The notes below the pieces were generated by a model. It was not told the DNA's origin, searched no databases, and saw nothing but the letters and a program-made list of their open reading frames with translations. 64,000 bases of DNA, from assembly GCF_029227855.1 (NCBI RefSeq), contig NZ_CP074356.1; one strand, given 5' to 3'. A program made the position numbers and the translations under genes. The DNA is from Escherichia coli (GTDB lineage Bacteria; Pseudomonadota; Gammaproteobacteria; Enterobacterales; Enterobacteriaceae). Shown piece after piece: positions 29,894-51,305 of the stretch. The number at the start of each line of letters is the position of its first letter. Position 1 is the first letter of the stretch.

Positions 29894-30676
29894 ATGCGCA
29901 CAAGCGACGTTACGCAACTGATGGATCTGGCGCTGGGGCTGTGGTTTCCCTTCGTGCGCATTATGGCGTTTCTGCGCTATGTGCCGGTGCTGGATAACAG
30001 CGCCCTGACCGTGCGCGTGCGGATTATTTTGTCGCTGGCGCTGGCAATCATCATCACGCCGTTGATCCCCCATCCCATTCCCCACGATCTGCTTTCACTC
30101 AACAGCCTGATCCTGACGGTGGAGCAAATTTTATGGGGCATGTTGTTCGGGCTGATGTTTCAGTTTCTGTTTCTCGCGCTACAACTGGCCGGACAAATTC
30201 TCTCGTTCAATATGGGGATGAGCATGGCGGTGATGAACGACCCGAGCAGCGGCGCATCGACCACCGTGCTGGCGGAGTTAATCAACGTCTATGCGATCCT
30301 GCTGTTTTTTGCCATGGACGGGCATCTGCTGCTGGTAAGCGTGCTGTATAAGGGCTTCACCTACTGGCCGATTGGTAACGCGCTGCATCCGCAAACCCTG
30401 CGCACCATCGCGCTGGCCTTTAGCTGGGTGCTGGCGTCCGCATCACTGCTGGCGCTGCCGACCACCTTCATCATGCTGATTGTGCAGGGCTGCTTTGGCC
30501 TGCTCAACCGCATCGCGCCGCCGCTGAACCTCTTTTCGCTCGGCTTTCCCATCAACATGCTGGCGGGGCTGGTTTGCTTTGCCACCCTGCTCTACAACCT
30601 GCCGGATCACTATCTGCATCTGGCGAATTTTGTGTTGCAGCAACTCGACGCGCTGAAAGGTCACTATGGCGGATAG
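29894..30676 (+). CDS. lfiR: export apparatus protein FliR (Flag-2 LfiR)
   Basis: ORF track (29843-30676); start at ATG 29894 immediately after the fliQ stop; polytopic membrane protein. Confidence 0.85.
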   Translation: MRTSDVTQLMDLALGLWFPFVRIMAFLRYVPVLDNSALTVRVRIILSLALAIIITPLIPHPIPHDLLSLNSLILTVEQILWGMLFGLMFQFLFLALQLAGQILSFNMGMSMAVMNDPSSGASTTVLAELINVYAILLFFAMDGHLLLVSVLYKGFTYWPIGNALHPQTLRTIALAFSWVLASASLLALPTTFIMLIVQGCFGLLNRIAPPLNLFSLGFPINMLAGLVCFATLLYNLPDHYLHLANFVLQQLDALKGHYGG

Positions 30677-31805
30677 CAGCAGCGAAGAAAAAACAGAGAA
30701 ACCCTCGGCGCAAAAGCTGCGTAAAGCGCGTGAAGAGGGGCAACTGCCGCGCTCGAAGGATATGGGGCTGGCAGCGAGCCTGTTTGCAGCGTTTGTGGTG
30801 ATCTCCAGCAGTTTTCCGTGGTATGCCGATTTTGTGCGCGAGAGTTTTATCAGCGTGCATCAGTACGCGCAGGAGATTAATAACCCGCAGGTGATCGGTC
30901 AGTTTCTGCGCCACCACCTGTTAATTCTCGGCAAGTTTATCCTTACGTTGCTGCCGATGCCCGCCGCCGCGCTGCTCTCTTCGCTGGTGCCGGGCGGCTG
31001 GCTGTTTCTGCCGAAAAAAATCCTCCCGGATTTCAGCAAAATTAGCCCGTTAAAAGGCATTGGGCGTCTGTTTTCCAGTGAACATCTGGCGGAAACGGGA
31101 AAGATGACGGTGAAGTCTGCCGTGGTGCTGGTGATGCTGTGGGTAAGCCTGCGCAATAACTTTGCCGCCTTTCTCGGCCTGCAGGCGCTGCCGTTCAAAC
31201 TGGCGATGAATGACGGTTTGTCGCTCTACGCCAGCGTGATGCGCAACTTTGTCATCCTGTTTATTTTCTTTGCGCTTCTCGACGTGCCGCTGGCGAAAGC
31301 CCTGTTCACCAAAGGGCTGAAGATGACCAAACAAGAACTGAAAGAAGAGTACAAAAATCAGGAAGGCAAGCCGGAAGTGAAGGCGCGCGTGCGGCGGCTG
31401 CAACGGCAGCTGGCGATGGGGCAAATTCGCAAAGTGGTGCCAAAGGCCAACGTGGTGATCACCAACCCGACCCACTACGCCGTGGCGTTGCAGTATGACC
31501 AGTCGCGTGCCGCCGCGCCGTTTGTGGTGGCGAAAGGCACCGATGAAATCGCCCTCTATATTCGCCAGGTCGCTGCTGAAAGTCAGGTGGAAGTGGTCGA
31601 GTTCCCGCGGCTGGCGCGCTCGGTTTACTATACCACTCAGGTGAATCAGCAAATTCCTTTTCAGCTTTACCGGGCTATCGCCCACGTTCTGACCTACGTC
31701 CTGCAAATGAAACACTGGCGCGAGGGCGCACAGCCGCGCCCGGCCCTGAACAGACATATTTCCATTCCCAAAGAGGTGCTTAAACTGGATGGCGAAAACA
31801 ACTAA
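30666..31805 (+). CDS. lfhB: export apparatus protein FlhB (Flag-2 LfhB)
   Basis: ORF track, 379 aa; conserved NPTH autocleavage motif (…VVITNPTHYAVAL…). Confidence 0.9.
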   Translation: MADSSSEEKTEKPSAQKLRKAREEGQLPRSKDMGLAASLFAAFVVISSSFPWYADFVRESFISVHQYAQEINNPQVIGQFLRHHLLILGKFILTLLPMPAAALLSSLVPGGWLFLPKKILPDFSKISPLKGIGRLFSSEHLAETGKMTVKSAVVLVMLWVSLRNNFAAFLGLQALPFKLAMNDGLSLYASVMRNFVILFIFFALLDVPLAKALFTKGLKMTKQELKEEYKNQEGKPEVKARVRRLQRQLAMGQIRKVVPKANVVITNPTHYAVALQYDQSRAAAPFVVAKGTDEIALYIRQVAAESQVEVVEFPRLARSVYYTTQVNQQIPFQLYRAIAHVLTYVLQMKHWREGAQPRPALNRHISIPKEVLKLDGENN

Positions 31806-36161: not shown

Positions 36162-36899
36162 GCGCCATTCGCCTGGCATAATCTTTTGCCAGGTTTCATT
36201 GCCCGTCAGCGGCTGTGTTGCAATCACCGTGACCACATCATTCGGTGTGGTCTGCGAGCTGAAGTCGATTTCCACATCCTGATCCAGCAACGTTGCCACG
36301 CCAAACGGCGCACGACGGGTGATCCAGTGTAAATTAGTCGAGCAATACGCCATTACATAGCGCCCGTCAGAAAGCAGCATGTTGAAAACGCCCTTCTGCC
36401 GCAGTTCATCCGCCAGTGAGGCGATATATTTAAACACTGCCGCCATGTTGCCCGGTGTGCGCGGGTAACGCTGCGTTAATTTATGCAGGAGCCAGCAGAA
36501 GGCTTTTTCGCTGTCGGTTTCACCGACCGGGCGGAAGTTGCCGGTTTCCAGTGATTTATAGCCCGTCAGTTGCCCATTATGGGCATAAGTCCAGTTACGC
36601 CCCCATAACTCGCGGGTAAACGGGTGAGTATTTTCCAGCGCCACCTCGCCCCGATTCGCCTGGCGAATATGAGCCACCACCGAACAGGATTTTATCGGGT
36701 AGTCCTGGACAAGTTTGGCGATGGGGGAATTAAAGCTGGGTTGCGGATCTTTAAATGTGCGACAGCCTTTACCTTCGTAAAAGGTAATGCCCCAGCCATC
36801 TTTATGTGGCCCGGTTCCACCACCACGCTGTACAAGTCCGGTGAAACTAAAGCAGATATCGGTAGGGACGTTGGCGCTCATCCCGAGCAATTCGCACAT
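36132..36899 (-). CDS. yafJ: class II glutamine amidotransferase YafJ
   Basis: ORF track (36132-36914); start set at MCELLGM (N-terminal Cys nucleophile after Met); 3' end overlaps yafK convergently. Confidence 0.85.
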
Positions 36900-36960
36900 G
36901 GGTAACCTCCACAACAGCGGGAGCGCATGGCCCCCGGCGAAGATTGATTTAAGTATTTTC

Positions 36961-36997
36961 AGGTCGGATGCGGCGTAAACGCATTATTCGGCCTACG
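36961..36997. repeat. REP-like element
   Basis: aggtcggatgcggcgtaaacgcattattcggcctacg, close to the REP consensus; in the yafJ-gmhA intergenic region. Confidence 0.6.
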
Positions 36998-37003
36998 CCA
37001 GAC

Positions 37004-37582
37004 TTACTTAACCATCTCTTTTTCAATTAACTGGATCAGGATATGGATAACTTTAATGTGGATCTCCTGAATGCGGTCGGCATAACCAAAGTGCGGTACG
37101 CGAATTTCGATATCCGCTGTGCCAGCCATTTTACCGCCGTCTTTACCGGTCAGGGTGATCACTTTCATCCCCTTCTCACGCGCCGCCGCGATCGCTTTGA
37201 TCACGTTTGCAGAGTTACCGGAGGTGGAGATCCCCAGCAGTACATCGCCTTCGCGACCTACCGCTTCAACGTAACGGGAGAAAATATCATTGAAACCAAA
37301 ATCGTTACCGACGCAGGAAATATGACTAACGTCAGAAATGGCAATCGCCGGGTAGCCCGGACGGTTTTCACGGTAGCGACCGGTCAACTCTTCGGCAAAG
37401 TGCATAGCGTCGCAATGGGAGCCGCCGTTGCCACAGGAAAGCACCTTGCCACCGGCTTTAAAGCTGTCTGCTAACAGGACCGCCGCGCGCTGAATGGCGT
37501 GAATATTGGCGTCATCTTTTAAAAAGTTAGCCAGCGTTTCCGCCGCTTCGTTCAGTTCGTTACGAATAAGATCCTGGTACAT
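37004..37582 (-). CDS. gmhA: phosphoheptose isomerase GmhA
   Basis: ORF track (37004-37744); start set at [17 protein letters not shown]... (192 aa), SIS domain; the upstream in-frame extension is not real. Confidence 0.9.
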
Positions 37583-37821
37583 GAGGATATCCTTCAGCAT
37601 AAATGTAATAGACAAAATGCAGTGTACCGGATACCGCCAAAAGCGAGAAGTACGGGCAGGTGCTATGACCAGGACTTTTTGACCTGAAGTGCGGATAAAA
37701 ACAGCAACAATGTGAGCTTTGTTGTAATTATATTGTAAACACATTGCTAAATGTTTTTACATCCACTACAACCATATCATCACAAGTGGTCAGACCTCCT
37801 ACAAGTAAGGGGCTTTTCGTT

Positions 37822-40266
37822 ATGATGATTTTGAGTATTCTCGCTACGGTTGTCCTGCTCGGCGCGTTGTTCTATCACCGCGTGAGCTTATTTATCAGCA
37901 GTCTGATTTTGCTCGCCTGGACAGCCGCACTCGGCGTTGCTGGTCTGTGGTCGGCGTGGGTACTGGTGCCTCTGGCCATTATCCTCGTGCCATTTAACTT
38001 TGCGCCTATGCGTAAGTCGATGATTTCCGCGCCGGTATTTCGCGGTTTCCGTAAGGTGATGCCGCCGATGTCGCGCACTGAGAAAGAAGCGATTGATGCG
38101 GGCACCACCTGGTGGGAAGGCGATTTGTTCCAGGGCAAGCCGGACTGGAAAAAGCTGCATAACTATCCGCAGCCGCGCCTGACCGCAGAAGAGCAAGCGT
38201 TTCTCGACGGCCCGGTAGAAGAAGCCTGCCGGATGGCGAATGATTTCCAGATTACTCATGAGCTGGCGGATCTGCCGCCGGAGTTGTGGGCGTACCTTAA
38301 AGAGCATCGTTTCTTCGCGATGATCATCAAAAAAGAGTACGGCGGGCTGGAGTTCTCGGCTTATGCCCAGTCTCGCGTGCTGCAAAAACTCTCCGGCGTG
38401 AGCGGGATCCTGGCGATTACCGTCGGCGTGCCAAACTCATTAGGTCCGGGCGAGCTGCTGCAACATTACGGCACTGACGAGCAGAAAGATCACTATCTGC
38501 CGCGTCTGGCGCGTGGTCAGGAAATCCCTTGCTTTGCACTGACCAGCCCGGAAGCGGGTTCCGATGCAGGCGCTATCCCGGATACCGGGATTGTCTGCAT
38601 GGGCGAATGGCAGGGCCAGCAGGTGCTGGGAATGCGTCTGACCTGGAACAAACGCTACATTACGCTCGCACCGATTGCGACCGTGCTTGGTCTGGCGTTT
38701 AAACTCTCCGACCCGGAAAAACTGCTGGGTGGCGCAGAAGATTTAGGTATTACCTGTGCGCTGATCCCGACCACCACGCCGGGCGTGGAAATTGGTCGTC
38801 GCCACTTCCCGCTAAACGTACCGTTCCAGAACGGACCGACGCGCGGTAAAGATGTCTTCGTACCGATCGATTACATTATCGGCGGACCAAAAATGGCCGG
38901 GCAAGGCTGGCGGATGCTGGTGGAGTGCCTCTCGGTAGGCCGCGGCATCACCCTGCCTTCCAACTCAACCGGCGGCGTGAAATCGGTAGCGCTGGCAACG
39001 GGTGCGTATGCGCACATTCGCCGTCAGTTCAAAATCTCTATCGGTAAGATGGAAGGGATTGAAGAGCCGCTGGCGCGTATTGCCGGGAATGCCTACGTGA
39101 TGGATGCTGCGGCATCGCTGATTACCTACGGCATTATGCTCGGTGAAAAACCCGCCGTGTTGTCGGCTATCGTTAAGTATCACTGTACCCACCGGGGGCA
39201 GCAATCGATTATTGATGCGATGGATATCACTGGTGGCAAAGGCATTATGCTCGGGCAGAGCAACTTCCTGGCGCGTGCTTACCAGGGCGCACCGATTGCC
39301 ATAACCGTTGAAGGGGCTAACATTCTGACCCGCAGCATGATGATCTTCGGACAAGGAGCGATTCGTTGCCATCCGTACGTGCTGGAAGAGATGGAAGCGG
39401 CGAAGAACAATGACGTTAACGCGTTCGATAAACTGCTGTTCAAACATATCGGTCACGTCGGCAGTAACAAAGTTCGCAGCTTCTGGCTGGGCCTGACGCG
39501 CGGTTTAACCAGCAGCACGCCAACCGGCGATGCCACTAAACGCTACTATCAGCACCTGAACCGCCTGAGCGCCAACCTCGCCCTGCTTTCTGATGTCTCG
39601 ATGGCTGTGCTGGGCGGCAGCCTGAAACGTCGCGAGCGTATCTCGGCACGTCTGGGGGATATTTTAAGCCAGCTTTACCTCGCCTCTGCCGTTCTGAAGC
39701 GTTATGACGACGAAGGCCGTAATGAAGCCGATCTGCCGCTGGTGCACTGGGGCGTACAGGATGCGCTGTATCAGGCTGAACAGGCGATGGACGATTTACT
39801 GCAAAACTTCCCGAACCGCGTGGTTGCCGGGCTGCTGAATGTAGTGATCTTCCCGACCGGACGTCATTATCTGGCACCGTCTGACAAGCTGGATCATAAA
39901 GTGGCGAAGATTTTACAAGTGCCGAACGCCACTCGCTCACGTATTGGTCGCGGTCAGTACCTGACGCCGAGCGAGCATAATCCGGTTGGCTTGCTGGAAG
40001 AGGCGCTGGTGGATGTGATTGCCGCCGACCCGATTCATCAGCGGATCTGTAAAGAGCTGGGTAAAAACCTGCCATTTACCCGTCTGGATGAACTGGCGCA
40101 CAACGCGCTGGCGAAGGGGCTGATTGATAAAGATGAAGCCGCTATTCTGGTGAAAGCTGAAGAAAGCCGTCTGCGCAGTATTAATGTTGATGACTTTGAT
40201 CCGGAAGAGCTGGCGACGAAGCCGGTAAAGTTGCCGGAGAAAGTGCGGAAAGTTGAAGCCGCGTAA
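37822..40266 (+). CDS. fadE: acyl-CoA dehydrogenase FadE
   Basis: ORF track (37744-40266); start set at [20 protein letters not shown]... (814 aa). Confidence 0.9.
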
Positions 40267-40274
40267 TTGAATAA

Positions 40275-40299
40275 CGGAGCCGAAAGGCTCCGTTTCTTT
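40275..40299 (+). terminator. Rho-independent terminator after fadE (between convergent fadE and ivy)
   Basis: Hairpin cggagcc-gaaa-ggctccg followed by tttcttt. Confidence 0.75.
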
Positions 40300-40308
40300 A
40301 TCCGCTAA

Positions 40309-40782
40309 TTATTTAAAATTAAAGCCATCCGGATGGTTTTCCAGGCTGCCGGTCAACGCCGCGAACAGCACCGTTTTACCATCAATCGAAAGCGCATCGT
40401 TCACATTCAACCAGGTGAGTTTCTCTTGCGACGTTTTCTCATCAATGGTCGAGAACAGCCCCGTCATCTGATTAGATTTCTCGGACCACATCACAGCGAT
40501 ACGTTGCGAGCCACAGTCATGCGGTTTGCACGCGCTCATCACCTGATACGTCTCATCTCCCAACGTTACGGTTTGTGCAGGGGTATAAGTACCGCCTTTC
40601 ATCACCCAGGCAGGCAGCTTATGCCCTTGCACCATCTGATTAAACGCAGCTTTGGTGGTTTCGCCCTTTGCAAGGCTGCTAATGGTTAAATCATCCTGCG
40701 CCATTGCACTGGTGGCGATGACCAGAGCGGCGACTGTCGTTATTGCCTTAAACATCATTCCTCCCGAGCTTATCCTGCCCAT
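40309..40782 (-). CDS. ivy: inhibitor of vertebrate lysozyme Ivy
   Basis: ORF track, 157 aa, MGRISSGGMMFKAITTVAALVIATSAMA... with the CKPHDC motif. Confidence 0.85.
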   Translation of the reverse strand: MGRISSGGMMFKAITTVAALVIATSAMAQDDLTISSLAKGETTKAAFNQMVQGHKLPAWVMKGGTYTPAQTVTLGDETYQVMSACKPHDCGSQRIAVMWSEKSNQMTGLFSTIDEKTSQEKLTWLNVNDALSIDGKTVLFAALTGSLENHPDGFNFK

Positions 40783-40935
40783 GTTATTAACCTCCTAAAG
40801 CCTGGCGATAACACGATAATTTGCAAATCAGATATTTCCAATATCAGCATTTGTTATCAATTTATTCTGCGCTAAGGCAACTGCCTGATAAGGTGTTAGA
40901 GTTATAAAACCCTTCGCATAAAGGAGTTGTACACC

Positions 40936-41706
40936 GTGTCTGGTTTGAAGATTACGCTTTTACAGCAACCACTGGTGTGGATGGATGGTCCTGCCAACCT
41001 GCGTCATTTTGATCGTCAACTGGAAGGTATTACCGGACGCGATGTGATCGTTCTACCGGAGATGTTTACCAGCGGCTTTGCCATGGAAGCGGCAGCTTCG
41101 TCGCTAGCACAAGATGACGTAGTGAACTGGATGACAGCCAAAGCGCAGCAGTGCAATGCGCTGATTGCAGGCAGTGTTGCATTACAAACGGAGTCTGGTT
41201 CGGTTAACCGCTTTTTGCTGGTTGAGCCGGGCGGCACGGTACATTTTTATGATAAGCGTCATCTGTTCCGCATGGCAGATGAGCATCTACATTATAAAGC
41301 GGGCAATGCGCGAGTGATTGTGGAATGGCGCGGCTGGCGTATTTTGCCGCTGGTGTGCTACGACTTACGTTTTCCGGTGTGGTCGCGCAATCTCAACGAT
41401 TATGACCTCGCCATCTACGTTGCCAACTGGCCTGCTCCGCGCTCTCTGCACTGGCAGGCATTGCTGACGGCCCGCGCGATTGAGAATCAGGCGTATGTGG
41501 CGGGATGCAATCGCGTCGGCAGCGATGGCAACGGCTGCCATTATCGCGGTGACAGCCGGGTGATTAATCCACAGGGCGAGATTATCGCTACTGCCGACGC
41601 GCATCAGGCAACGCGCATTGATGCGGAGCTGTCGATGGTGGCATTGCGGGAATATAGAGAAAAGTTTCCGGCATGGCGGGATGCGGATGAGTTTAGGTTG
41701 TGGTGA
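40936..41706 (+). CDS. yafV: nitrilase-superfamily omega-amidase YafV
   Basis: ORF track (40927-41706); GTG start at 40936 nine nt after AAGGAG; carbon-nitrogen hydrolase family by eye. Confidence 0.8.
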   Translation: MSGLKITLLQQPLVWMDGPANLRHFDRQLEGITGRDVIVLPEMFTSGFAMEAAASSLAQDDVVNWMTAKAQQCNALIAGSVALQTESGSVNRFLLVEPGGTVHFYDKRHLFRMADEHLHYKAGNARVIVEWRGWRILPLVCYDLRFPVWSRNLNDYDLAIYVANWPAPRSLHWQALLTARAIENQAYVAGCNRVGSDGNGCHYRGDSRVINPQGEIIATADAHQATRIDAELSMVALREYREKFPAWRDADEFRLW

Positions 41707-41744
41707 GTGGGTGTTGTGTTTAGGGGCGGGGTAAGACTACGGGT

Positions 41745-41767
41745 CAGGGCAAGATTACGAAAGCCCG
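41745..41767. repeat. 23-bp direct repeat, left copy, flanking the IS256-family fragment
   Basis: cagggcaagattacgaaagcccg; 22/23 identical to 42121-42143. Confidence 0.6.
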
Positions 41768-41800
41768 GAGCCTGTCCATCATTCTGTGTAAATGCCTTTC

Positions 41801-42043
41801 TCAGAAGTGACCGTCAAGGCGGTCACCGAACTCGATAATAAAGCGACTCATCCCTATCCGCCAGTCCTGAAGTGGCATCGTCCATTTTTGCGACGCTGAC
41901 TGGAAAGCCAGCCACACCACTTTTTTCACCGACTCATCTGTCGGGAACACTTTCCGTTTCTTTATCGCATGTGTGATGATGCTATTCAGCGATTCGATTG
42001 CGTTAGTGGTGTAGATAACCTTGCGGATCGCCTCCGGGTACAC
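41801..42043 (-). pseudogene. C-terminal fragment of an IS256-family (Mutator-type) transposase
   Basis: ORF track 80 aa ...YTTNAIESLNSIITHAIKKRKVFPTDESVKKVVWLAFQSASQKWTMPLQDWR... matches the conserved C-terminus of IS256-family transposases; the N-terminal ~300 aa are absent. Confidence 0.6.
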
Positions 42044-42120
42044 GAAGAATGTGGCAACATTCGGCCAGTTTGCCCGCCAGCTGCGACTTATCTGCGGGTA
42101 CCGTGCATCCCATTCCTTCC

Positions 42121-42143
42121 CAGGGAAAGATTACGAAAGCCCG
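42121..42143. repeat. 23-bp direct repeat, right copy
   Basis: cagggaaagattacgaaagcccg. Confidence 0.6.
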
Positions 42144-43263
42144 CTCCCCGCAAGGACTGACGCCAGATAGTTTCTGTCCATGGCTGCTTTTCGCATCTTA
42201 CGTCTTAACCCTGCCTTGAATACCTTATCATTCGTCAAAATATTAATAGCGATGTGCCGTATCCCTGAAAATAATTCTGCTGCATTTCCTCTTCTTATTT
42301 TGCAGTCGTCTTCATTCATTACCACGTCCAGACGCCAGTGCAGCTTATTCTCCACGTGCCAGTGGTTTCGGATTGCTGTGGCGAACTTCTCTGCGGTTAA
42401 ATCAGCAGAACTAATATAATATCTGACCGCCATTTCTGGCTCTTTCTTTTGTTCTGCTATTATTGACCGAAAGGAGACTGCCACGCATAATTTCTTCAGA
42501 CCTTTCCATTCAAACGTGAAATCAATAAGTTCATCAGGGACATCGCAAACAATGTGAAGACGGATTTCTTCTCTGCCGTGACTCTTTTCACTCATTGCGT
42601 AACTGTCATGCTCTGGATTATTTAATTCTTTCAGCGGAAATTCTCGAAGGCTTTATTTAGCCGCCCCTGGTTTCCTTTTACAGCGAATAAATAATCACCT
42701 CCCTGTTTTTGTATCTTCTCTGCAATATCTTTCTGGCAACCCATCGCATCAGTTGTGATGATTTTTCCTTTAATATCCAGCATGTTAAGAAGTTCTGGGA
42801 TAGCTGTAATTTCATTGGATTTCTCATCCGTCCTGATCTGTCCGATGACCAGACTGTGCATTGTTGAGAACGCACTAATGACATGAATCGCTCCCTTGCG
42901 GCGACTCTTGTCATAAGAATGCCGGAGTGTTTTTCCATCAATTGCGATGACGTCTTTATCATCTGAAGTATGGCAATCTCGCATCCAGTTAATAAAGCAC
43001 TCGTGAAATTTTGCAGGACTGATACAGGATACAACTCTGGCGATGGTATCGTGAACAGGAATACCATTTTAAAAATCACCGTATTGTTTTAAAAAATCGA
43101 GATGTGTTTCCCCAAAATCCTCTATATCTTCCCAACCTTCCGCACCCGAAATAACAGCACAAATAGTCAACAGTAGAATATCCGATAATTTATGTTCCAC
43201 TTTCCAGGCTTGTCTGTAATCGGGGATAATAGAAATATGCCCCATCAATTTTTTAAGTTCTAT
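42131..43263 (-). mobile_element. ISAs1-family (H-repeat) transposase gene, inactivated
   Basis: Track ORFs 42631-42984 and 42131-42595 are consecutive parts of an ISAs1/H-rpt transposase in different frames; hand translation of 43263-42985 gives the N-terminus with ATA in place of the first ATG (an in-frame Met codon remains at 43245-43243), and an in-frame TAA at 43071-43069. Confidence 0.8.
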
Positions 43264-43483
43264 TTTGTTCTCCTTAATTATGTAAGGAGTATTTGATCAT
43301 GTATAAGCAATAAAAAACAGCTTTAGGTAATGAGGAATATCTCAATTTTTAAGCATAAAATGCGAATTATTTAGTACAAAAAAGCAGCGTTACGTGATCT
43401 TTCCCTGCACTTCACCCTAACTTTAATTTAACTTCAAGAAGTATTAAGGCCTCAATAGCGAACTTAATACTTCTTAAAGAATA

Positions 43484-43861
43484 TCACTCCTGACCAAAAT
43501 CTTTCCACACTAATGCATGAGACTTTGATTTATCACCCAAAAATTTACTTACATCTTTCCAAAGTAAAGAATTGCTATCGGTCGCAGTGACTATTGCCTC
43601 TATAAGCCCTGTAGCTACAACTGTGGCCAATTCATCATCAATCGAGACCATACCATCTTCGACATGTTTAAATATTTTTTCTCTTTCAATATCACCCATT
43701 TCATAAAAATTTTTTACAATCGTTTTTCCAATCTGAGAGAACAACATAACCACCGGTGGAGTTTCTGGATGCCAGTATTCATTAGCTAATGAGACTGTCT
43801 CAGACAAAACAGTGGAAAACGATGCCATTTTTTCTATATAATTAGCAATATATTGGTTCAT
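43484..43861 (-). CDS. putative immunity protein for the Rhs C-terminal toxin, 125 aa
   Basis: ORF track; small AT-rich ORF whose ATG overlaps the rhs stop codon; classic effector-immunity arrangement; family unknown. Confidence 0.5.
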   Translation of the reverse strand: MNQYIANYIEKMASFSTVLSETVSLANEYWHPETPPVVMLFSQIGKTIVKNFYEMGDIEREKIFKHVEDGMVSIDDELATVVATGLIEAIVTATDSNSLLWKDVSKFLGDKSKSHALVWKDFGQE

Positions 43862-46800
43862 TACTTGCCTCCCAAAGCATTCTGTAAATCCTGAAGAACG
43901 TTTTCTGCTGCTGCTCGATCCCCTGGAGATGCTGTTGGATTCTTATCCAACCAATCCTGTAAAGCCCTTGTATAATCCTGTGCTTTCAATACATGTCCTC
44001 TACCACCAACTTTTTCACCTGTGGCCAATTCATAACGAACAGCATCTGCTGTGCTTCCACTTCCTACTTTTGCATTTGGCCGATAAAGATCGTCTATAAT
44101 ATTTTTCAAATTTGAATCTGTAACGTCAGGTTTTCCCATCTTCTGTCGCAATTCATCTTTATACCGTTCATGCTGCATACGATCTCTTGCGCTATTCTCA
44201 TCTTCTGGTCCCCATCCTCCCGGGCTTCCCGTACTGCCACCACCCAGGCAGTTCTTCTCTTCCTCCGTCAAATCCTTCCCGACATTTGGATTCTCTTTTG
44301 ATGAATCATCATTTCCAAACACGCTGGAAAAAGCACCATAGGGATCTCGCCAGAATTCCATTTGACTTTGTGCATTTAATAATTCGGCTTCACCCTGCAT
44401 CTCCATACTTTTCTCAATCGCGTCCCCAACAGCCTCGCGATTGTTGTATATTATTATACCACCACCAATAACCACCGTACCGACTGCCGCACCGACTAAC
44501 ATCCCCGGAGGGCCTCCTACCGAACCGATCTCTGTACCTACTTCAGAACCAGTTCCCATGGCAGTTAATGCTCCTGCGCCCAACGCCGCACTTAATCCCA
44601 GCGGATCCAGCCGTTGCACCGGGTTCAGTGGATACGCATACAGGTTCCATCCCCCCTTCAGCCCAATCGGATCCTGGGTGATATACCTCCCCTGTAGCGG
44701 GTCATAGTACCGGTGACGGTTGTAGTACAGCCCCGACTCCTCATCATACTGCTGCCCCGGCAGACGGAGTGACTGTTGAAGGTGCTGCGTGCTTTCCTCT
44801 CCCAGCAGGTTTCCCCACTCGTCATACTCCCCGCGCCACGCCGTTTCCCCTTCCGGGCTGATAAGCGCCTGCGGCAGCCCACGGTGGTCACAGTGGTAAA
44901 GATGAAGTTTCCTCTCCGGGATGTATTCCGCCTCCAGTTGCGCCGCCATCTGTTCCGCCGTCAACCCACACTGTGCAAGCCACTGCTGGCTTTCTTCACT
45001 CACGCTGCCCTGCCGCAGTTCCCGCTCCAGCCTCCCCAGCATCACCGCCAGCTCCGCCGGTAGCGTCACACCCGTGTCCTCCTGCAACACCTCCGCCAGG
45101 CTACGGTGCCGCGCCTTCGCCTGTTCGCCATTCTCTGTTTCGATTCTCAGGAGCGGCGTGAAGCTCCCCGGCTGGTATACCGTCTGGATACGCGTGGTGT
45201 CGGTCTGTACCGTCGTCAGCCTGTCGCCGTCCCACCCGTACCAGGTCACCTCCGGTTTACGCGACAGCGACATCCACCCCGTCAGGTCACGCTCCCGCCG
45301 CCACACCCGTTTTCCCGTCCGGCGGCCCAGCGGGTCATAGAGGTAGCGGCTCTCCACCTGTGGCTCGCCGTGCTGTATCCGCGTGTAGAACACCAGGCGG
45401 TGCTGGCTGTCGTAATGGTAGTGGTGCGTCCGCTCGTCGTGCATCCGTATCACCCCTTCCGGGATACGGTCCGTCTTCTCCGCCAGCCTGCCGTATTCAT
45501 CGTAGCGGTAGACATAGTGCGCATCTTCCGTGATGCGGTTATCCGGCCACGCCGTGAGGGTGCTGTCCGGGTGCAGTTCCGGGTCCGGCAGCCGGTTTCC
45601 TGCCGGGTCCGTCGCATACGGGATATCAATGTCCAGGTTCGCTGCCGTGGTGTGGACGCCCGTCAGCCTTCCCGTGTCGCTGTAACGGTACTCCCGGCTC
45701 TCCTGCGGGCCGCTGATGCGAATTAGCTGTCCGTTGTCGTTCCAGTCGTAGTCACGGTCAAGCTGCGGAAGGTTCAGGTGCCTGCTCCGGAGCTGGCCGC
45801 TGGTATTCCAGGCGGTGGCAAGCTCATATGCCTCCCCGCCGAAGCTGCGGGCCGTCTCACGGTGCAGCCGGTCCCGCGTGTACTCGACCAGTGGCGTACC
45901 ACCCAGCTTCATTCCCGCAAGATAACCGCTGCCATACGTCAGCCACTCCACCGGCGGCAGACCGTCCAGCTCCTGACGGGTCGCCAGCCCCTGTTCGCTG
46001 TACGCGTGCTTCGTCTCATGCTCCCACAGCATCTCCCCCGTCTCCGGGTTCTCCACCGTCTGCCGTTCGCCCGTCAGGCGGCCTTTATCGTCGTGGCCGT
46101 AGTGGACCGCCACACGGTGGCCTTCGCTGATATGGCTGATTTCTGTCAGCCAGCCGTGCTCATCATACTGCCACTGCTCCGCCGGGTCGCCGTTCACCGT
46201 CCGGTGCGTGATGCGGTCCGACGCATCGTAATGCCAGAGGGTGATAAGTCCCTCGTCTTCACTGTGGACAAGCTGCCCTGTGGCGCTGTACCGGTAACGC
46301 TGCGTCCTGCCGTCAAAGCCGCGCTGCTCCGTCAGCCTGTCCACCGGGTCATACCGGAACGTGGACTGGCTGCCGTTCTCGTTGGTCAGCACGGTGATGC
46401 GCCCGGCAGCGTCATACCCCATGCTGCGCGTCAGACCGCCTTCCGTCACACTCACCGGACGCCCGCGTTTATCATATTCGATGGTGCTGCGTTTACCGTC
46501 CGGTGATATCGTTGCTGTCAGGTCGCCTGCGGCGCTGTACTCATAACGGGTTTCACGCCCCTGCGCATCCTTCTGACTGACCAGTTGGCCTCGCGGGTTA
46601 TAACTGCTGTAAGTGCTGATGCCTTCCTCCCGGTGAACGGCGATTTGTTGACCGTACCGGTCATACTCATACCGCGTCATGTACCCCGAGCAGTCCGTGA
46701 AGGCCCGAAGCTGACCGTACCGGTTTCGCGTTATTCTCCGCGTCACCCCGATTCCGTCTTCCACCGCGCCGGGCAGGCTACTGCGGGGGGAGTCATAAAA

Positions 46801-48360
46801 CCAGCGCGTAATGTTACCGTTGCGCGAGATCTCTTCTGCCAGTCGGCCCTGACGGTCATATTTCCGGCTGCTGCGTAAACCATCCGGATATGTCACTGAA
46901 GTCAGTTGCAACTGGCTGTTGTAACCATACCGTACCGTCCTGCCGTCCGGCAGTATCACTGAAGTCAGCTTTCCAGACGCCATATGCAGCCGGTACTCCG
47001 TCCGCCGTCCTGCCGCATCCGTCTGCGCCTTCAGCCTCCCCGCCTCATCATACTCGCTGCGGGTGATGCTCCCGTCGGCATGCTCCTTCTTCACCACACG
47101 CTTCAGGCCACCCCCGCCTTCCGTGTACAGCACCTCCCGCCGGTTCAGGCTGTCCGTGATGGTCACACGGTCCTGCCCGTACTCAAAGCGGTAGTCCAGC
47201 CCCTCCGGGTTGACCTGCTCCGTCACCCGCCCGGTATCATCATACCGGTAGCGGCTCTCCGGCCTCCCTGCATAATGGTGCGCCACCATCCGCCCGGCGT
47301 GCTCCGCATCATAAGTAAACCCGCGCACCTGCGTCCCGCTGCGGTCATACACCGCCCGCAGTTCTCCGCTGGCCGTGTACGTATAGCGCGCCAGCGGCGC
47401 AGTCGGCTGTTCATCCGGGTATGCCGGGTCGTGTGTCAGCCACACCGCCTCCAGCCGGATACCGTTATCGGCACCGTATTCTGTACCGGCGGGCAGCGTA
47501 TCGGGGAAAACCTGAGAAGAGGAAACAGAACGGGGACCGGCTGGAGAAGATAAAGAAGAGGCGCGCTGTTTACGGAAGGCTTCCGCCCGCTGCGCCTGCG
47601 TGCTCAGCGCCAGGTGAAAACAGCGGCCCGCGCCGTCCGTCACCCCCGTCACCGCACCCGCCACGTCACCCTCTGCCGCCCGGTGGAAGGCCAGCGTCCG
47701 CCCGAAGCCGTCCACCACGCCCGTCAGCACCCGGTATGCGGGCGGCTCCGGCGGCAGCACCTCGTCCGCCCCCGGCACCCGCTCCGGCCAGCCGAGCACC
47801 AGCCACTGCCCGGTTGTGCTGGCAGCCATCATATAGATGTGTGGACTCAGACGGACCGCTTCCGGCAACGCCCGCCAGAGCCGCGCAAGCGGGTGGCCTT
47901 TGTGCTGTTTCAGCACCCCGCACCGCGCCAGCCAGAACGACTCGCTGCGGCTGTAGCTTATCTCGCCGGGAAACAGGGGTTCAAAGTGAATGCTCCTGCC
48001 GCCGCTGTCGTTGAGTATCAGGCCTTCATCGCGTATCTGTAAGCGGATATCGAAGGGGGCTTTCCAGCCGGGACCAAACACCCCCACCGGCGCGGGCGTC
48101 CTGGTCCGGTAGCTGCTGTAGGCGCGGAAAAGAACAAACGGCAGCGGGCCGGACAGTGCCAGGTCGGTTTCAGCAGGCAGCACCTTCGCTCCCAGCAGCG
48201 GGTTTACCGGATTGCCATATTTCGGCGTGGCTTCCCCTGTGGGACACACCGAGCAGGCCACACCGGTTGGCGCACCTATCAGCACCCCTGCTGAACCCTG
48301 CACAATATCCAGTCCCTTGCGGGTCATGTCACCCTGCCGCGCCGCCGGTTTTCCACCCAT
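43861..48360 (-). CDS. rhs: PAAR-domain Rhs (YD-repeat) polymorphic toxin, 1499 aa, with variable C-terminal toxin domain
   Basis: ORF track; N-terminal PAAR motif ([11 protein letters not shown]...), long YD-repeat core, DPLGL core-end motif at 44593-44607 followed by a ~243-aa C-terminal domain of lower GC. Confidence 0.9.
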
Positions 48361-48435
48361 GAATCAATTCCTTCTGCTTTTAATATGGTTTATCTGGTCA
48401 CTGCACCAGTTCCGTTTTAATTTTTTGCACCTGAC

Positions 48436-50577
48436 TCAAAATTGCCGCATATCCGGCATTCCGGGGGGTAAATCTTTCGGCACAGGCGCATCCGGTACAG
48501 GTTGTGTGGCACCACAGTTCCAGTTAATCACCGGCGCATCACCGTTCACATCCGACTCTCCTTCCAGATGAATGTGCGTACCATTGAGAAATATGCTTCC
48601 GTCCTTCGTCAGCACCAACCTTGCCTTACCGCAGCAGAGTTCCAGATGCTCACCGGCAGAATAAACTGCTGTTTGTCCGGTGTTTTCCTTCATCGTCTTG
48701 CCCACCGAGAAGGTGACGTTATTCCCTACATTGACGCTGTAGCCCATTCCCACCATCAGTGATTTATGCAGCCCTACCTGTGAGGACTGCAACAACGCCA
48801 CCGAGGTATTCATGATGCCGCCTACCGTCGTCTGGTAAGCCACGCCCACCGTCAGCGCACGAATGATCCCCACCTTTTCAACCTGGTTTGAACCCACTTT
48901 GACAATCTGGTTGCTGCCTACCGTTTCCACCTGGTTGACACCAACCGTCTGTATCTGATTAACGCCAATGTTCTGGATCTGGTTATTGGTAACGGTGATC
49001 GCCTGGTTGTTACCTATTTTTTCGGCATGGTTGTTTATCACATCAGTGGTACGGTTATTCAGCACCTCGGTGTTCATGTTCTTCTGCGCGTGGATGTAGA
49101 CCTGTTCTTTCCCTGTCGCATCGTCAAACTTCAGTTCATTAAACCCGCTGCCCTTATAGGTTTTTGAACGAATGGTCATCTGCGTCTTTGTTCCCGGCAG
49201 GCTGCCGGGGGTGCGGTTTTCCTGGTGGTAGGTGCGCCCCATAATAATCGGCTGGTCCGGATCGCCGTTGAGGAAGTCCACAATGACTTCCTGACCCACA
49301 CGCGGTATCGCCAGGTTGCCAAAGCCGGTGCCTGCCCACGCCTGTGCCACACGGATCCAGCATGAACTGTCCTGGTTTGACGGGTTATAGCGGTCCCAGT
49401 TAAATTTCACCCGCACGCGGCCATGTTCATCACAGAAGATTTCTTCTCCTGCCGGTCCCGTCACGACGGCGCTCTGCGGGCCGTCCACCAGCGGTTTCAG
49501 CAACGGCTGTGGCCGCCATGTTCTGTCTGCCGGTATTACCGCAAAGTGGTTATTCAGCGTGGTACCTGAACCCCTGCGTCCCGGCACCGCCTGCGGCTGC
49601 TCGCCGTGCAGTTCACTTGCCACCACCTGCCATTCCCGGTTCAGGTTCGCCTGCGGATGCCCCGTCAGCGCAATTCGCCGTCCCGGCCATATCTCCGGCG
49701 AACGGCTTGTTCCGCGCGCCACTTCTGCGTTGTTTCGCCAGCCATCCATCTGCCAGCAGGCAAAGTTCTGCCCGTGGGCACCCTTGAAACGTCCGGGGTA
49801 GTCATACACTTCATACTGTGTGCGCTGGTAATCCTGGTGCTGGCCTTCCTGATCAAAACGCCCTGCCCAGCCGGGTCGTTTAAAGGTGTAGTCTTTGGTC
49901 ACCACGGAAGATGGGCGGATTTGTGCGCTGTAGAGGAACTGGCTGATGCATAGGGTGCTCACCTCGGTACGGGTGTTCGGATTCCAGGGGATCTCAAAGG
50001 ACTCCGGCAGATAACGCACGGTGTCGCACAGGACCAGGCTCTGGTCGGTACTTTTTTGCGCGTGCTCCTCATAAAAGAAGATGCCTTCCTCCGCCGCCAT
50101 CCGGCACAGGAAATCGTAATCGGTTTCGCCGTACTGGACACAAAACTCACGGGAAGGATGCGGCTCGCTGAACAGCGGACTCCACTCGGTCACCCCGTTT
50201 TCTTTCAGGATCGTCGCGAGTATGCTTTCGATGTCCTCATTCTGGAAGATACGGAAGTTCTGGCGCAGCCCTGTGCGCCACAGCGGTGGGCACACCTTCA
50301 TGCTGTACAGCATCTGGTTTTTGTCGTTCTCCCCCAGTTCAAACCAGGTCACCACACCTTTCACCCGGCGCTGTACGTCATCGCCCTGCCATACCGTCAG
50401 GTAGGCCATTTTGTCCAGCACCTGCGCAAATTCAAGGGAGAGAAACTGCTGGCTGACCAGAGAGAGATCGAGGGAAAAGAGCGAAGAGAGTGACTGGTTC
50501 AGATGAAAGGAGACCACCGCAAACGCGTCCGGTGGCAGGCCGTCCACTTCCAGCGTGAAACGTAATCCGGTTGACAT
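48436..50577 (-). CDS. vgrG: T6SS spike protein VgrG (TssI)
   Basis: ORF track, 713 aa; gp27/gp5-like sequence and beta-helix repeats (…VGSNQIVKVGSNQVEKVG…). Confidence 0.9.
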   Translation of the reverse strand: MSTGLRFTLEVDGLPPDAFAVVSFHLNQSLSSLFSLDLSLVSQQFLSLEFAQVLDKMAYLTVWQGDDVQRRVKGVVTWFELGENDKNQMLYSMKVCPPLWRTGLRQNFRIFQNEDIESILATILKENGVTEWSPLFSEPHPSREFCVQYGETDYDFLCRMAAEEGIFFYEEHAQKSTDQSLVLCDTVRYLPESFEIPWNPNTRTEVSTLCISQFLYSAQIRPSSVVTKDYTFKRPGWAGRFDQEGQHQDYQRTQYEVYDYPGRFKGAHGQNFACWQMDGWRNNAEVARGTSRSPEIWPGRRIALTGHPQANLNREWQVVASELHGEQPQAVPGRRGSGTTLNNHFAVIPADRTWRPQPLLKPLVDGPQSAVVTGPAGEEIFCDEHGRVRVKFNWDRYNPSNQDSSCWIRVAQAWAGTGFGNLAIPRVGQEVIVDFLNGDPDQPIIMGRTYHQENRTPGSLPGTKTQMTIRSKTYKGSGFNELKFDDATGKEQVYIHAQKNMNTEVLNNRTTDVINNHAEKIGNNQAITVTNNQIQNIGVNQIQTVGVNQVETVGSNQIVKVGSNQVEKVGIIRALTVGVAYQTTVGGIMNTSVALLQSSQVGLHKSLMVGMGYSVNVGNNVTFSVGKTMKENTGQTAVYSAGEHLELCCGKARLVLTKDGSIFLNGTHIHLEGESDVNGDAPVINWNCGATQPVPDAPVPKDLPPGMPDMRQF

Positions 50578-50786: not shown

Positions 50787-51305
50787 TTATGCTTCCAGCG
50801 GTGCGCGCCAGTCGTCGGCACCGGAGGTGCCAGACTTGACGTGTTCCCACTCTATTTTGCGGTAGGCCAGTGAAACTTCGAGCAACTGGGTGAACTCGCG
50901 TTTCGCCGGATCCTGGCAATGCGGCATATGCAGTTTCATATCGACAATCGTCGAATCGGTCAGGCGGGTGGTGAAATAATGCTCCTGTTTGCCTTCCACA
51001 GAGGTACGCCACCAGTGAAGTTCAGTGGTTGGCAGCATTTCGCCGGAGGCCAGTGCGTTGTACATCAGCGGAACAGCTTTGTTCAGCGCCACGGTAAAAA
51101 TGAACGGCTTGTGAGCACGCTGACCCGCAGGCTGGCCGGACTGAGGATCGGTCGGGACAGTAACGTTATGCAGGAATTCCTGCACCAGCATCTCGTCTTC
51201 GTGCCCCTGCACATAGATGTTGCCGACAGAATCAGCGGTAAATGCACCTGCAGTAATATTTCCCTGGGTCTGACCAGTGATGGAGATATAACACGGTGTT
51301 GGCAT
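50787..51305 (-). CDS. hcp: T6SS tube protein Hcp (TssD)
   Basis: ORF track, 172 aa, MPTPCYISITGQTQGNITAGAF... Confidence 0.9.
   Translation of the reverse strand: MPTPCYISITGQTQGNITAGAFTADSVGNIYVQGHEDEMLVQEFLHNVTVPTDPQSGQPAGQRAHKPFIFTVALNKAVPLMYNALASGEMLPTTELHWWRTSVEGKQEHYFTTRLTDSTIVDMKLHMPHCQDPAKREFTQLLEVSLAYRKIEWEHVKSGTSGADDWRAPLEA

Follow-up and report, generated by a model that had tools for sequence, protein, structure and literature searches.

Positions 42121-43407 (minus strand) of the 64-kb stretch of Escherichia coli DNA analyzed here (the window) almost certainly represent a full-length ISEc1 element, the 'H-repeat' (H-rpt) of Rhs elements, which extends from one inverted repeat to the other, carries a dead transposase gene and persists as an inert relic. 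We determined its identity, boundaries, lesions, population distribution and genomic context. The feature as such is already known, since the same pseudogene is flagged by RefSeq in about 100 genomes; the added value of our analysis lies in the exact element boundaries, the exact position of an indel, and the evidence for a stepwise and mostly recent decay.

Identity and boundaries of the element

We aligned the region with H-rptB of K-12 (yhhI, RhsB-associated) to set the limits of the element. The homology starts at 43407 and ends at 42121, with none beyond either limit, and the DNA identity is 95.8% over 1291 alignment columns. The element is 1287 bp long, the canonical 1291 bp less 4 bp lost by deletion. 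A repeat search found 25-nt terminal inverted repeats (IRs) exactly at the limits of the H-rptB homology (minus strand): the left IR, CAGGGAAAGATCACGTAACGCTGCT, at 43383-43407, and the right IR, TCTTTCCCTG, at 42121-42145, where it takes in the final transposase codons together with the stop. The two arms match at 20 of 25 positions, and their first 11 nt (CAGGGAAAGAT) match perfectly. The search for terminal inverted repeats that a preliminary description of this DNA had proposed as a check was thus positive.

Between the IRs lies the pseudogene of an ISAs1-family DDE transposase (42131-43263, minus strand), a disrupted ORF of 1133 nt that comprises 378 codons once repaired. Its lesion-repaired translation is identical to K-12 YhhI at 370 of 378 residues (98%), and scores 417 bits (E 3e-125, cutoff 70) against the NCBIfam model NF033564, 'ISAs1 family transposase'. 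YhhI itself contains the domains PF13808 (DDE_Tnp_1_assoc, residues 8-94) and PF01609 (DDE_Tnp_1). In strain JNEC-KY178, PGAP annotates a pseudogene at identical coordinates and on the same strand as 'ISAs1 family transposase; frameshifted; internal stop'. Taken together, the family match, the protein identity to YhhI and the DNA identity to H-rptB bear out the earlier assignment to the ISAs1-family H-repeats, and the PGAP call agrees with the earlier view of the gene as a pseudogene, a view that none of our observations speaks against. The window copy therefore resembles K-12 ISEc1/H-rptB in its 1291-bp architecture, in its ends and in both nucleotide and repaired protein sequence. Unlike H-rptB, it carries three inactivating or weakening lesions, has T for G at 42126 in the right IR, and lies at the T6SS-1/yafV locus, not between nikR and yhhJ.

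We compared the 8-10 bp beyond each IR and found no target-site duplication between the flanks GGTGAAGTG and GGAAGGAAT. The orthologous copy of strain 28Eco12 has been tabulated as ISEc1, 4160599..4161889, 1291 bp, and all the full-length ISEc1 copies tabulated for that strain have unmatched flanks (PMC6963479). Since the other 28Eco12 copies are unmatched too, the missing duplication is no argument against membership of the ISAs1 family; it does mean that a simple insertion event at 42121-43407 is not demonstrated. Our literature search on the IR/DR features of the ISAs1 family gave tangential papers only.

Three lesions in the transposase gene

All three lesions of the transposase gene are visible when it is aligned to the intact H-rpt copies of K-12 (H-rptB) and 19AR0646. 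The first replaces the start codon ATG with ATA (43261-43263, minus strand) and the second turns GAA (Glu65) into the nonsense codon TAA at codon 65 (43069-43071, minus strand); both copies used for comparison have ATG and GAA at these positions, in line with the earlier reading of the two sites. The third is the loss of 4 bp (GAAA) between 42643 and 42642 (minus strand), at about codon 207, which changes GAG GAA AAA TTT into GAG AAT TT. The resulting frameshift leads, 9 bp downstream of the deletion, to a premature TGA (42631-42633, minus strand). A frameshift had been predicted between 42595 and 42631. The frameshift itself holds but its bracket does not: this interval is the gap separating the two remaining open frames, and the mutation lies about 12 bp upstream of it.

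The three lesions differ in severity. AUA initiates translation in E. coli at about 1-2% of the AUG level (bioRxiv 10.1101/063800), so that lesion 1 is a strong hypomorph, or weak initiator, and not a null; PGAP takes ATA as the start codon in 28Eco12. From the native start the product is capped at about 64 N-terminal residues, and the transposase gene is dead in this lineage. One might ask if programmed recoding, that is, stop read-through combined with frameshifting, could still give a functional transposase, as programmed frameshifting is an established mode of expression in some IS families (IS1, IS3). We consider the chance of this negligible. A weak start, read-through and a change of frame would all be required together, ISAs1-family transposases are encoded by one continuous ORF, as in the YhhI, 28Eco12 and 19AR0646 copies, and the frameshift is a derived 4-bp deletion that is missing from the sister alleles.

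Distribution of the lesions among E. coli genomes

We searched 5,426 complete E. coli genomes with lesion-centred queries of 44 or 45 nt, for which a 28-nt seed was required, so that only lesion-bearing copies match. The ATA allele was present in 253 complete genomes, the TAA allele at this locus in 97 (exact 45-mer), and the deletion-junction 44-mer in 101; the TAA and deletion genomes were counted separately. Each of the three alleles occurs in at most one place per genome. In a megablast search of the same 5,426 genomes, positions 41800-43500 were 100% identical in strain JNEC-KY178 and were found at ≥80% coverage in 277 genomes. The whole window aligns to the JNEC-KY178 chromosome (NZ_AP045174.1) at 99.93-99.97% identity with few indels, and is therefore chromosomal DNA of a closely related E. 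coli strain. We sampled four of the lesion-bearing genomes, from Ireland, Germany, South Korea (a dog) and Egypt. In all four, the gene at this locus is labelled 'frameshifted; internal stop', and the element has the same two neighbours, the immunity gene and the IS256 fragment.

These data bear directly on whether the lesions are sequencing or assembly errors in an intact gene. The 4-bp deletion does lie within an A-rich run, GAGGAAAAATTT, which is a context prone to indel errors. Against this, the TAA and the deletion are seen again, once per genome, in complete genomes that were assembled independently (97 and 101, respectively), the four assemblies sampled from four countries each have both, and a loss of 4 bp is untypical of a homopolymer miscall. 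An artefact is therefore extremely unlikely, and the lesions are better taken as real mutations, which may serve as lineage markers.

Rhs and T6SS-1 context

The element occupies the distal edge of the aspV-side T6SS-1 island, where it follows a vgrG-rhs-immunity module in the same orientation. Upstream of it, on the same (minus) strand, are the genes for Hcp (50787-51305), beyond which the rest of the T6SS-1 cluster extends, and for the T6SS spike protein VgrG (48436-50577), the latter directly upstream of rhs. The Rhs core protein (43861-48360, minus strand) has 1499 aa, contains PF05593 (8 stretches), PF03527 and PF20148, and is named 'RHS element core protein' by PGAP. Its DPxGL motif is at about residue 1251 of 1499 and is followed by a variable C-terminal region; the core is 86.8% identical to that of the 19AR0646 rhs, and the C-termini are unrelated. 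An ORF of 125 aa (43484-43861, minus strand) overlaps the rhs stop and is presumed, from its position only, to be the cognate immunity gene. The left IR (43407) begins 76 bp past the stop of this ORF (43484).

The presence of H-repeats next to rhs genes has been known since Rhs elements were first characterized. The order of rhs, C-terminus/immunity and co-oriented H-rpt seen here is also found at K-12 RhsB, at RhsC/ybfD and in 19AR0646, and the window copy is thus like K-12 H-rptB in being downstream of, and co-oriented with, such a module. The placement next to an Rhs gene that had been noticed previously is well supported by this layout. The Rhs elements listed in the genome paper of E. coli W include one in the region b0215-b0221, the same locus as here (PMC3032704).

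With an E<=1 search, the C-terminal 144 aa of Rhs and the 125-aa ORF matched no Pfam family above threshold; the sole hit, a weak one of the 125-aa ORF, was to DUF7674 (20.7 bits, below the 27-bit cutoff). The C-terminal region of Rhs (43861-44600), which comprises about 250 aa after DPxGL, includes a hydrophobic, Gly-rich stretch. Between the 125-aa ORF and the left IR we also observed an AT-rich hairpin (43432-43479) with 17-bp arms that are 94% complementary and a 14-nt loop, which may be a terminator-like or a recombination-related structure.

Age and probable order of the decay

The copy of 28Eco12, a strain of ST38 (PMC6963479), is particularly informative. It occupies the same locus, and has in common with the window copy an identical left flank, the immunity protein WP_001077735.1, the IS256 fragment, the ATA start and GGG at codon 8. 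Unlike the window copy, it has neither the TAA nor the 4-bp deletion; apart from the ATA start, its 1137-bp CDS is intact, with 378 uninterrupted codons, and PGAP annotates it as an intact ORF under the name 'ISAs1-like element ISEc1 family transposase' (WP_024192499.1). At the corresponding position, 19AR0646 has an H-rpt copy with an intact ATG.

The window and 28Eco12 copies differ by five substitutions and the 4-bp deletion (99.3% nucleotide identity); on the branch leading to the window, four of these five are derived changes, the TAA among them. Over the adjacent island DNA (43500-50321), there are 4 differences in about 6,900 positions between the same two genomes. The H-rpt differences per base are thus about 6.7-fold above those of the adjacent DNA (Fisher p=0.007), an excess that is consistent with relaxed constraint. 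Among H-rpt copies dN/dS is 0.07-0.2, which indicates that the ORF was under purifying selection through most of its history.

Given that the TAA and the deletion occur in about 100 genomes and that 28Eco12 has ATA but is otherwise intact, the decay was stepwise and mostly recent. The start would have been weakened first (ATG to ATA), in a common ancestor of about 250 genomes, and the codon-65 nonsense mutation and the 4-bp deletion would then have been gained in a sub-lineage of about 100 genomes; we infer this order from the allele counts and five sampled loci. The preliminary description had called the decayed element old. For the decay this is contradicted by the restriction of the TAA and the deletion to only about 100 of 5,426 genomes, by the 28Eco12 ORF and by the low dN/dS. 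What is old is the occupancy of the island/yafV junction by ISAs1-family elements; the inactivation of this copy is young.

Other H-rpt copies allow further comparison. A decayed H-rpt past RhsC (ybfD, e.g. in WP3-W18-ESBL-08), which also follows an rhs/orphan array, likewise has GAA>TAA at codon 65, and this allele was found in 221 genomes (e.g. NZ_AP022003.1, 2831-3598). The ybfD copy differs in locus, has a large internal deletion and carries a different marker at 43081, 10 bp away from the TAA. We considered whether the TAA of the window copy was acquired by gene conversion from a ybfD-type copy, and rejected this because the marker at 43081 was not converted along with it and because no genome carries the TAA in two places. 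Judged from these sequences, the shared TAA looks like a recurrent mutation and not gene conversion.

Within the left IR, a 12-bp block (43383-43394) separates the window, 28Eco12 and 19AR0646 copies from the K-12 H-rptB and ybfD copies by 8-9 differences. Outside this block the two types share 95-97% identity, and with the window-type block the left end matches the right end over a longer stretch.

IS relics between the element and yafV

Downstream, the right IR abuts, with no spacer, the truncated end of a 353-bp IS256-family 3' fragment (41768-42120, minus strand). Its CDS (41801-42112) encodes the C-terminal 103 aa of the transposase, and the right end of the IS256 element is retained. The fragment matches PF00872 above cutoff (64.7 bits) and NF033543 with 70 bits, below the 150-bit full-length cutoff, as expected of a fragment; PGAP describes it as 'transposase; missing N-terminus'. 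Its identity is 95.5% with a copy carried by the E. coli plasmid pDETEC37 and 83% with IS1414.

Between the IS256 end and yafV (40936-41706, plus strand), the first core-genome gene past the island edge, we found a solo H-rpt right end of 23 bp (41745-41767, minus strand; CGGGCTTTCGTAATCTTGCCCTG). At the position that is T in the full copy (42126) it has G, as in K-12, and it aligns with the right end of the yafF (b4503) pseudogene that lies beside yafV in K-12. On this alignment the solo end is best read as a relic of an older resident H-rpt, a positional orthologue of the K-12 yafF end, and these 23 bp are the only trace of the older resident here. The window element is like yafF in that both are ISAs1-family remnants at the same island/yafV junction. 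It is unlike yafF, the relic of the older resident, in being a separate full-length copy, with the IS256 fragment between it and the solo relic. In O157:H7 an intact ISEc26 occupies the same junction. The presence of yafF in K-12 and of ISEc26 in O157:H7 at this one junction indicates that ISAs1-family occupancy of the island edge is widespread in the species, and the yafV edge of the T6SS-1 island appears as a long-standing landing or retention site for such elements, with nested IS relics.

The junction between H-rpt and IS256 exists in two forms, which we compared using NZ_CM132279.1 (7710-9134) and the window (41745-43407). In the first, that of the window, found in about 260 genomes, the H-rpt joins the IS256 element at a point 353 bp before the IS end. 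In the second, that of 19AR0646, the H-rpt is ATG-intact and the fusion point lies 77 bp from the IS end; this type of junction was found in 37 genomes. The solo end measures 57 bp in the 19AR0646 type versus 23 bp here, corresponding to a 34-bp deletion in the window exactly at the IS256 end.

A possible minimal history of this arrangement, wholly inferential, can be outlined as follows. An old H-rpt would have been resident at yafV, and would have been interrupted, 57 bp from its right end, by the insertion of an IS256-family element. A full element may then have been restored by a second H-rpt copy or through recombination with such a copy, and deletions of differing extent, anchored at IS ends, may have followed in different lineages. 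It is tempting to go further and to see in the downstream arrangement the footprint of real ISEc1 activity, so that the succession of ATA, TAA and deletion would be the later shut-down of an active copy. This stronger reading draws on two points: two lineages have a complete right end of H-rpt joined directly, with no spacer, to different internal points of the same IS256 element, and deletions of variable extent that are anchored at an IS end are what an active transposase would be expected to produce by intramolecular transposition (adjacent deletion). The fusion pattern resembles adjacent deletions but is not distinguishable from other routes of rearrangement, and we regard the footprint reading as unlikely.

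Possible residual function and mobility

An intact ISAs1-family element is moved by a DDE transposase acting on both inverted repeats. The element of the window is most simply viewed as inactive, a relic that would be inherited passively and vertically. If it retains any role, a plausible one would be to offer 1.3 kb of homology to other H-rpt copies in the genome; alternatively, it might act as a non-autonomous element, whose ends could in principle be recognized by the transposase of another copy.

The element had also been described as immobilised. This is correct insofar as its own transposase cannot be made, and goes too far insofar as both IRs are intact, which by sequence would in principle permit mobilization in trans. 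We therefore weighed the possibility that the element is non-autonomous yet mobile, its IRs being used by the transposase of another ISEc1 copy. In its favour, each IR is complete, and the agreement of the right IR, TCTTTCCCTG, with the left one is closer here than it is in K-12 H-rptB. Other H-rpt copies are common as well: the median number of H-rpt-matching places is 5 per E. coli genome, with 8 in the closest genome, and the ST38 strain 28Eco12 has several full-length ISEc1 copies (PMC6963479). On the other hand, each lesion allele is confined to one location per genome, which gives no hint of a past duplication of this copy, and the element lacks a target-site duplication. According to the E. 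coli W genome paper, H-rpt has not been seen to transpose (PMC3032704). On balance, mobility in trans is improbable, and a passively inherited relic remains our preferred reading. In a mobilome preprint on K-12 we found nothing pointing to ISAs1 circles.

We also considered a regulatory role for the truncated N-terminal peptide (59-64 aa), which might inhibit or otherwise regulate other ISEc1 copies. Such a peptide could run from ATA (43263) or TTG (43248) to the TAA, and the 59-aa ORF starting at TTG (43069-43248) persists. It would span most of the DDE_Tnp_1_assoc region, and truncated transposases are established inhibitors in other IS families (IS50 Inh, IS1 InsA). However, a third of the domain is missing, and the limitation of the TAA to about 100 genomes is what neutral decay predicts. 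Nor is there evidence of expression: in a scan of 41700-43900, neither promoter-like sites (8 found vs 5.2 ± 2.7 in shuffled sequence) nor terminator-like sites (3 vs 1.6) were above the shuffled level. A regulatory peptide is thus highly unlikely.

Other features of the window

We compared the window with 28Eco12 over 36243-50321 and observed a divergence of about 0.06% over rhs/vgrG (43500-50321) and of about 1% over yafV-ivy-fadE (36243-41500), with the shift falling near the island edge. This suggests that the recombination history of the T6SS/Rhs island differs from that of the core genes flanking it. At the other end of the window, positions 1-34000 hold a complete Flag-2 gene cluster (lateral flagella, lafA). 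Its flhB is annotated as frameshifted in JNEC-KY178, which is 99.9% identical; we rejected the pseudogene status that this annotation implied, as flhB is an intact 379-aa ORF here (30666-31805).
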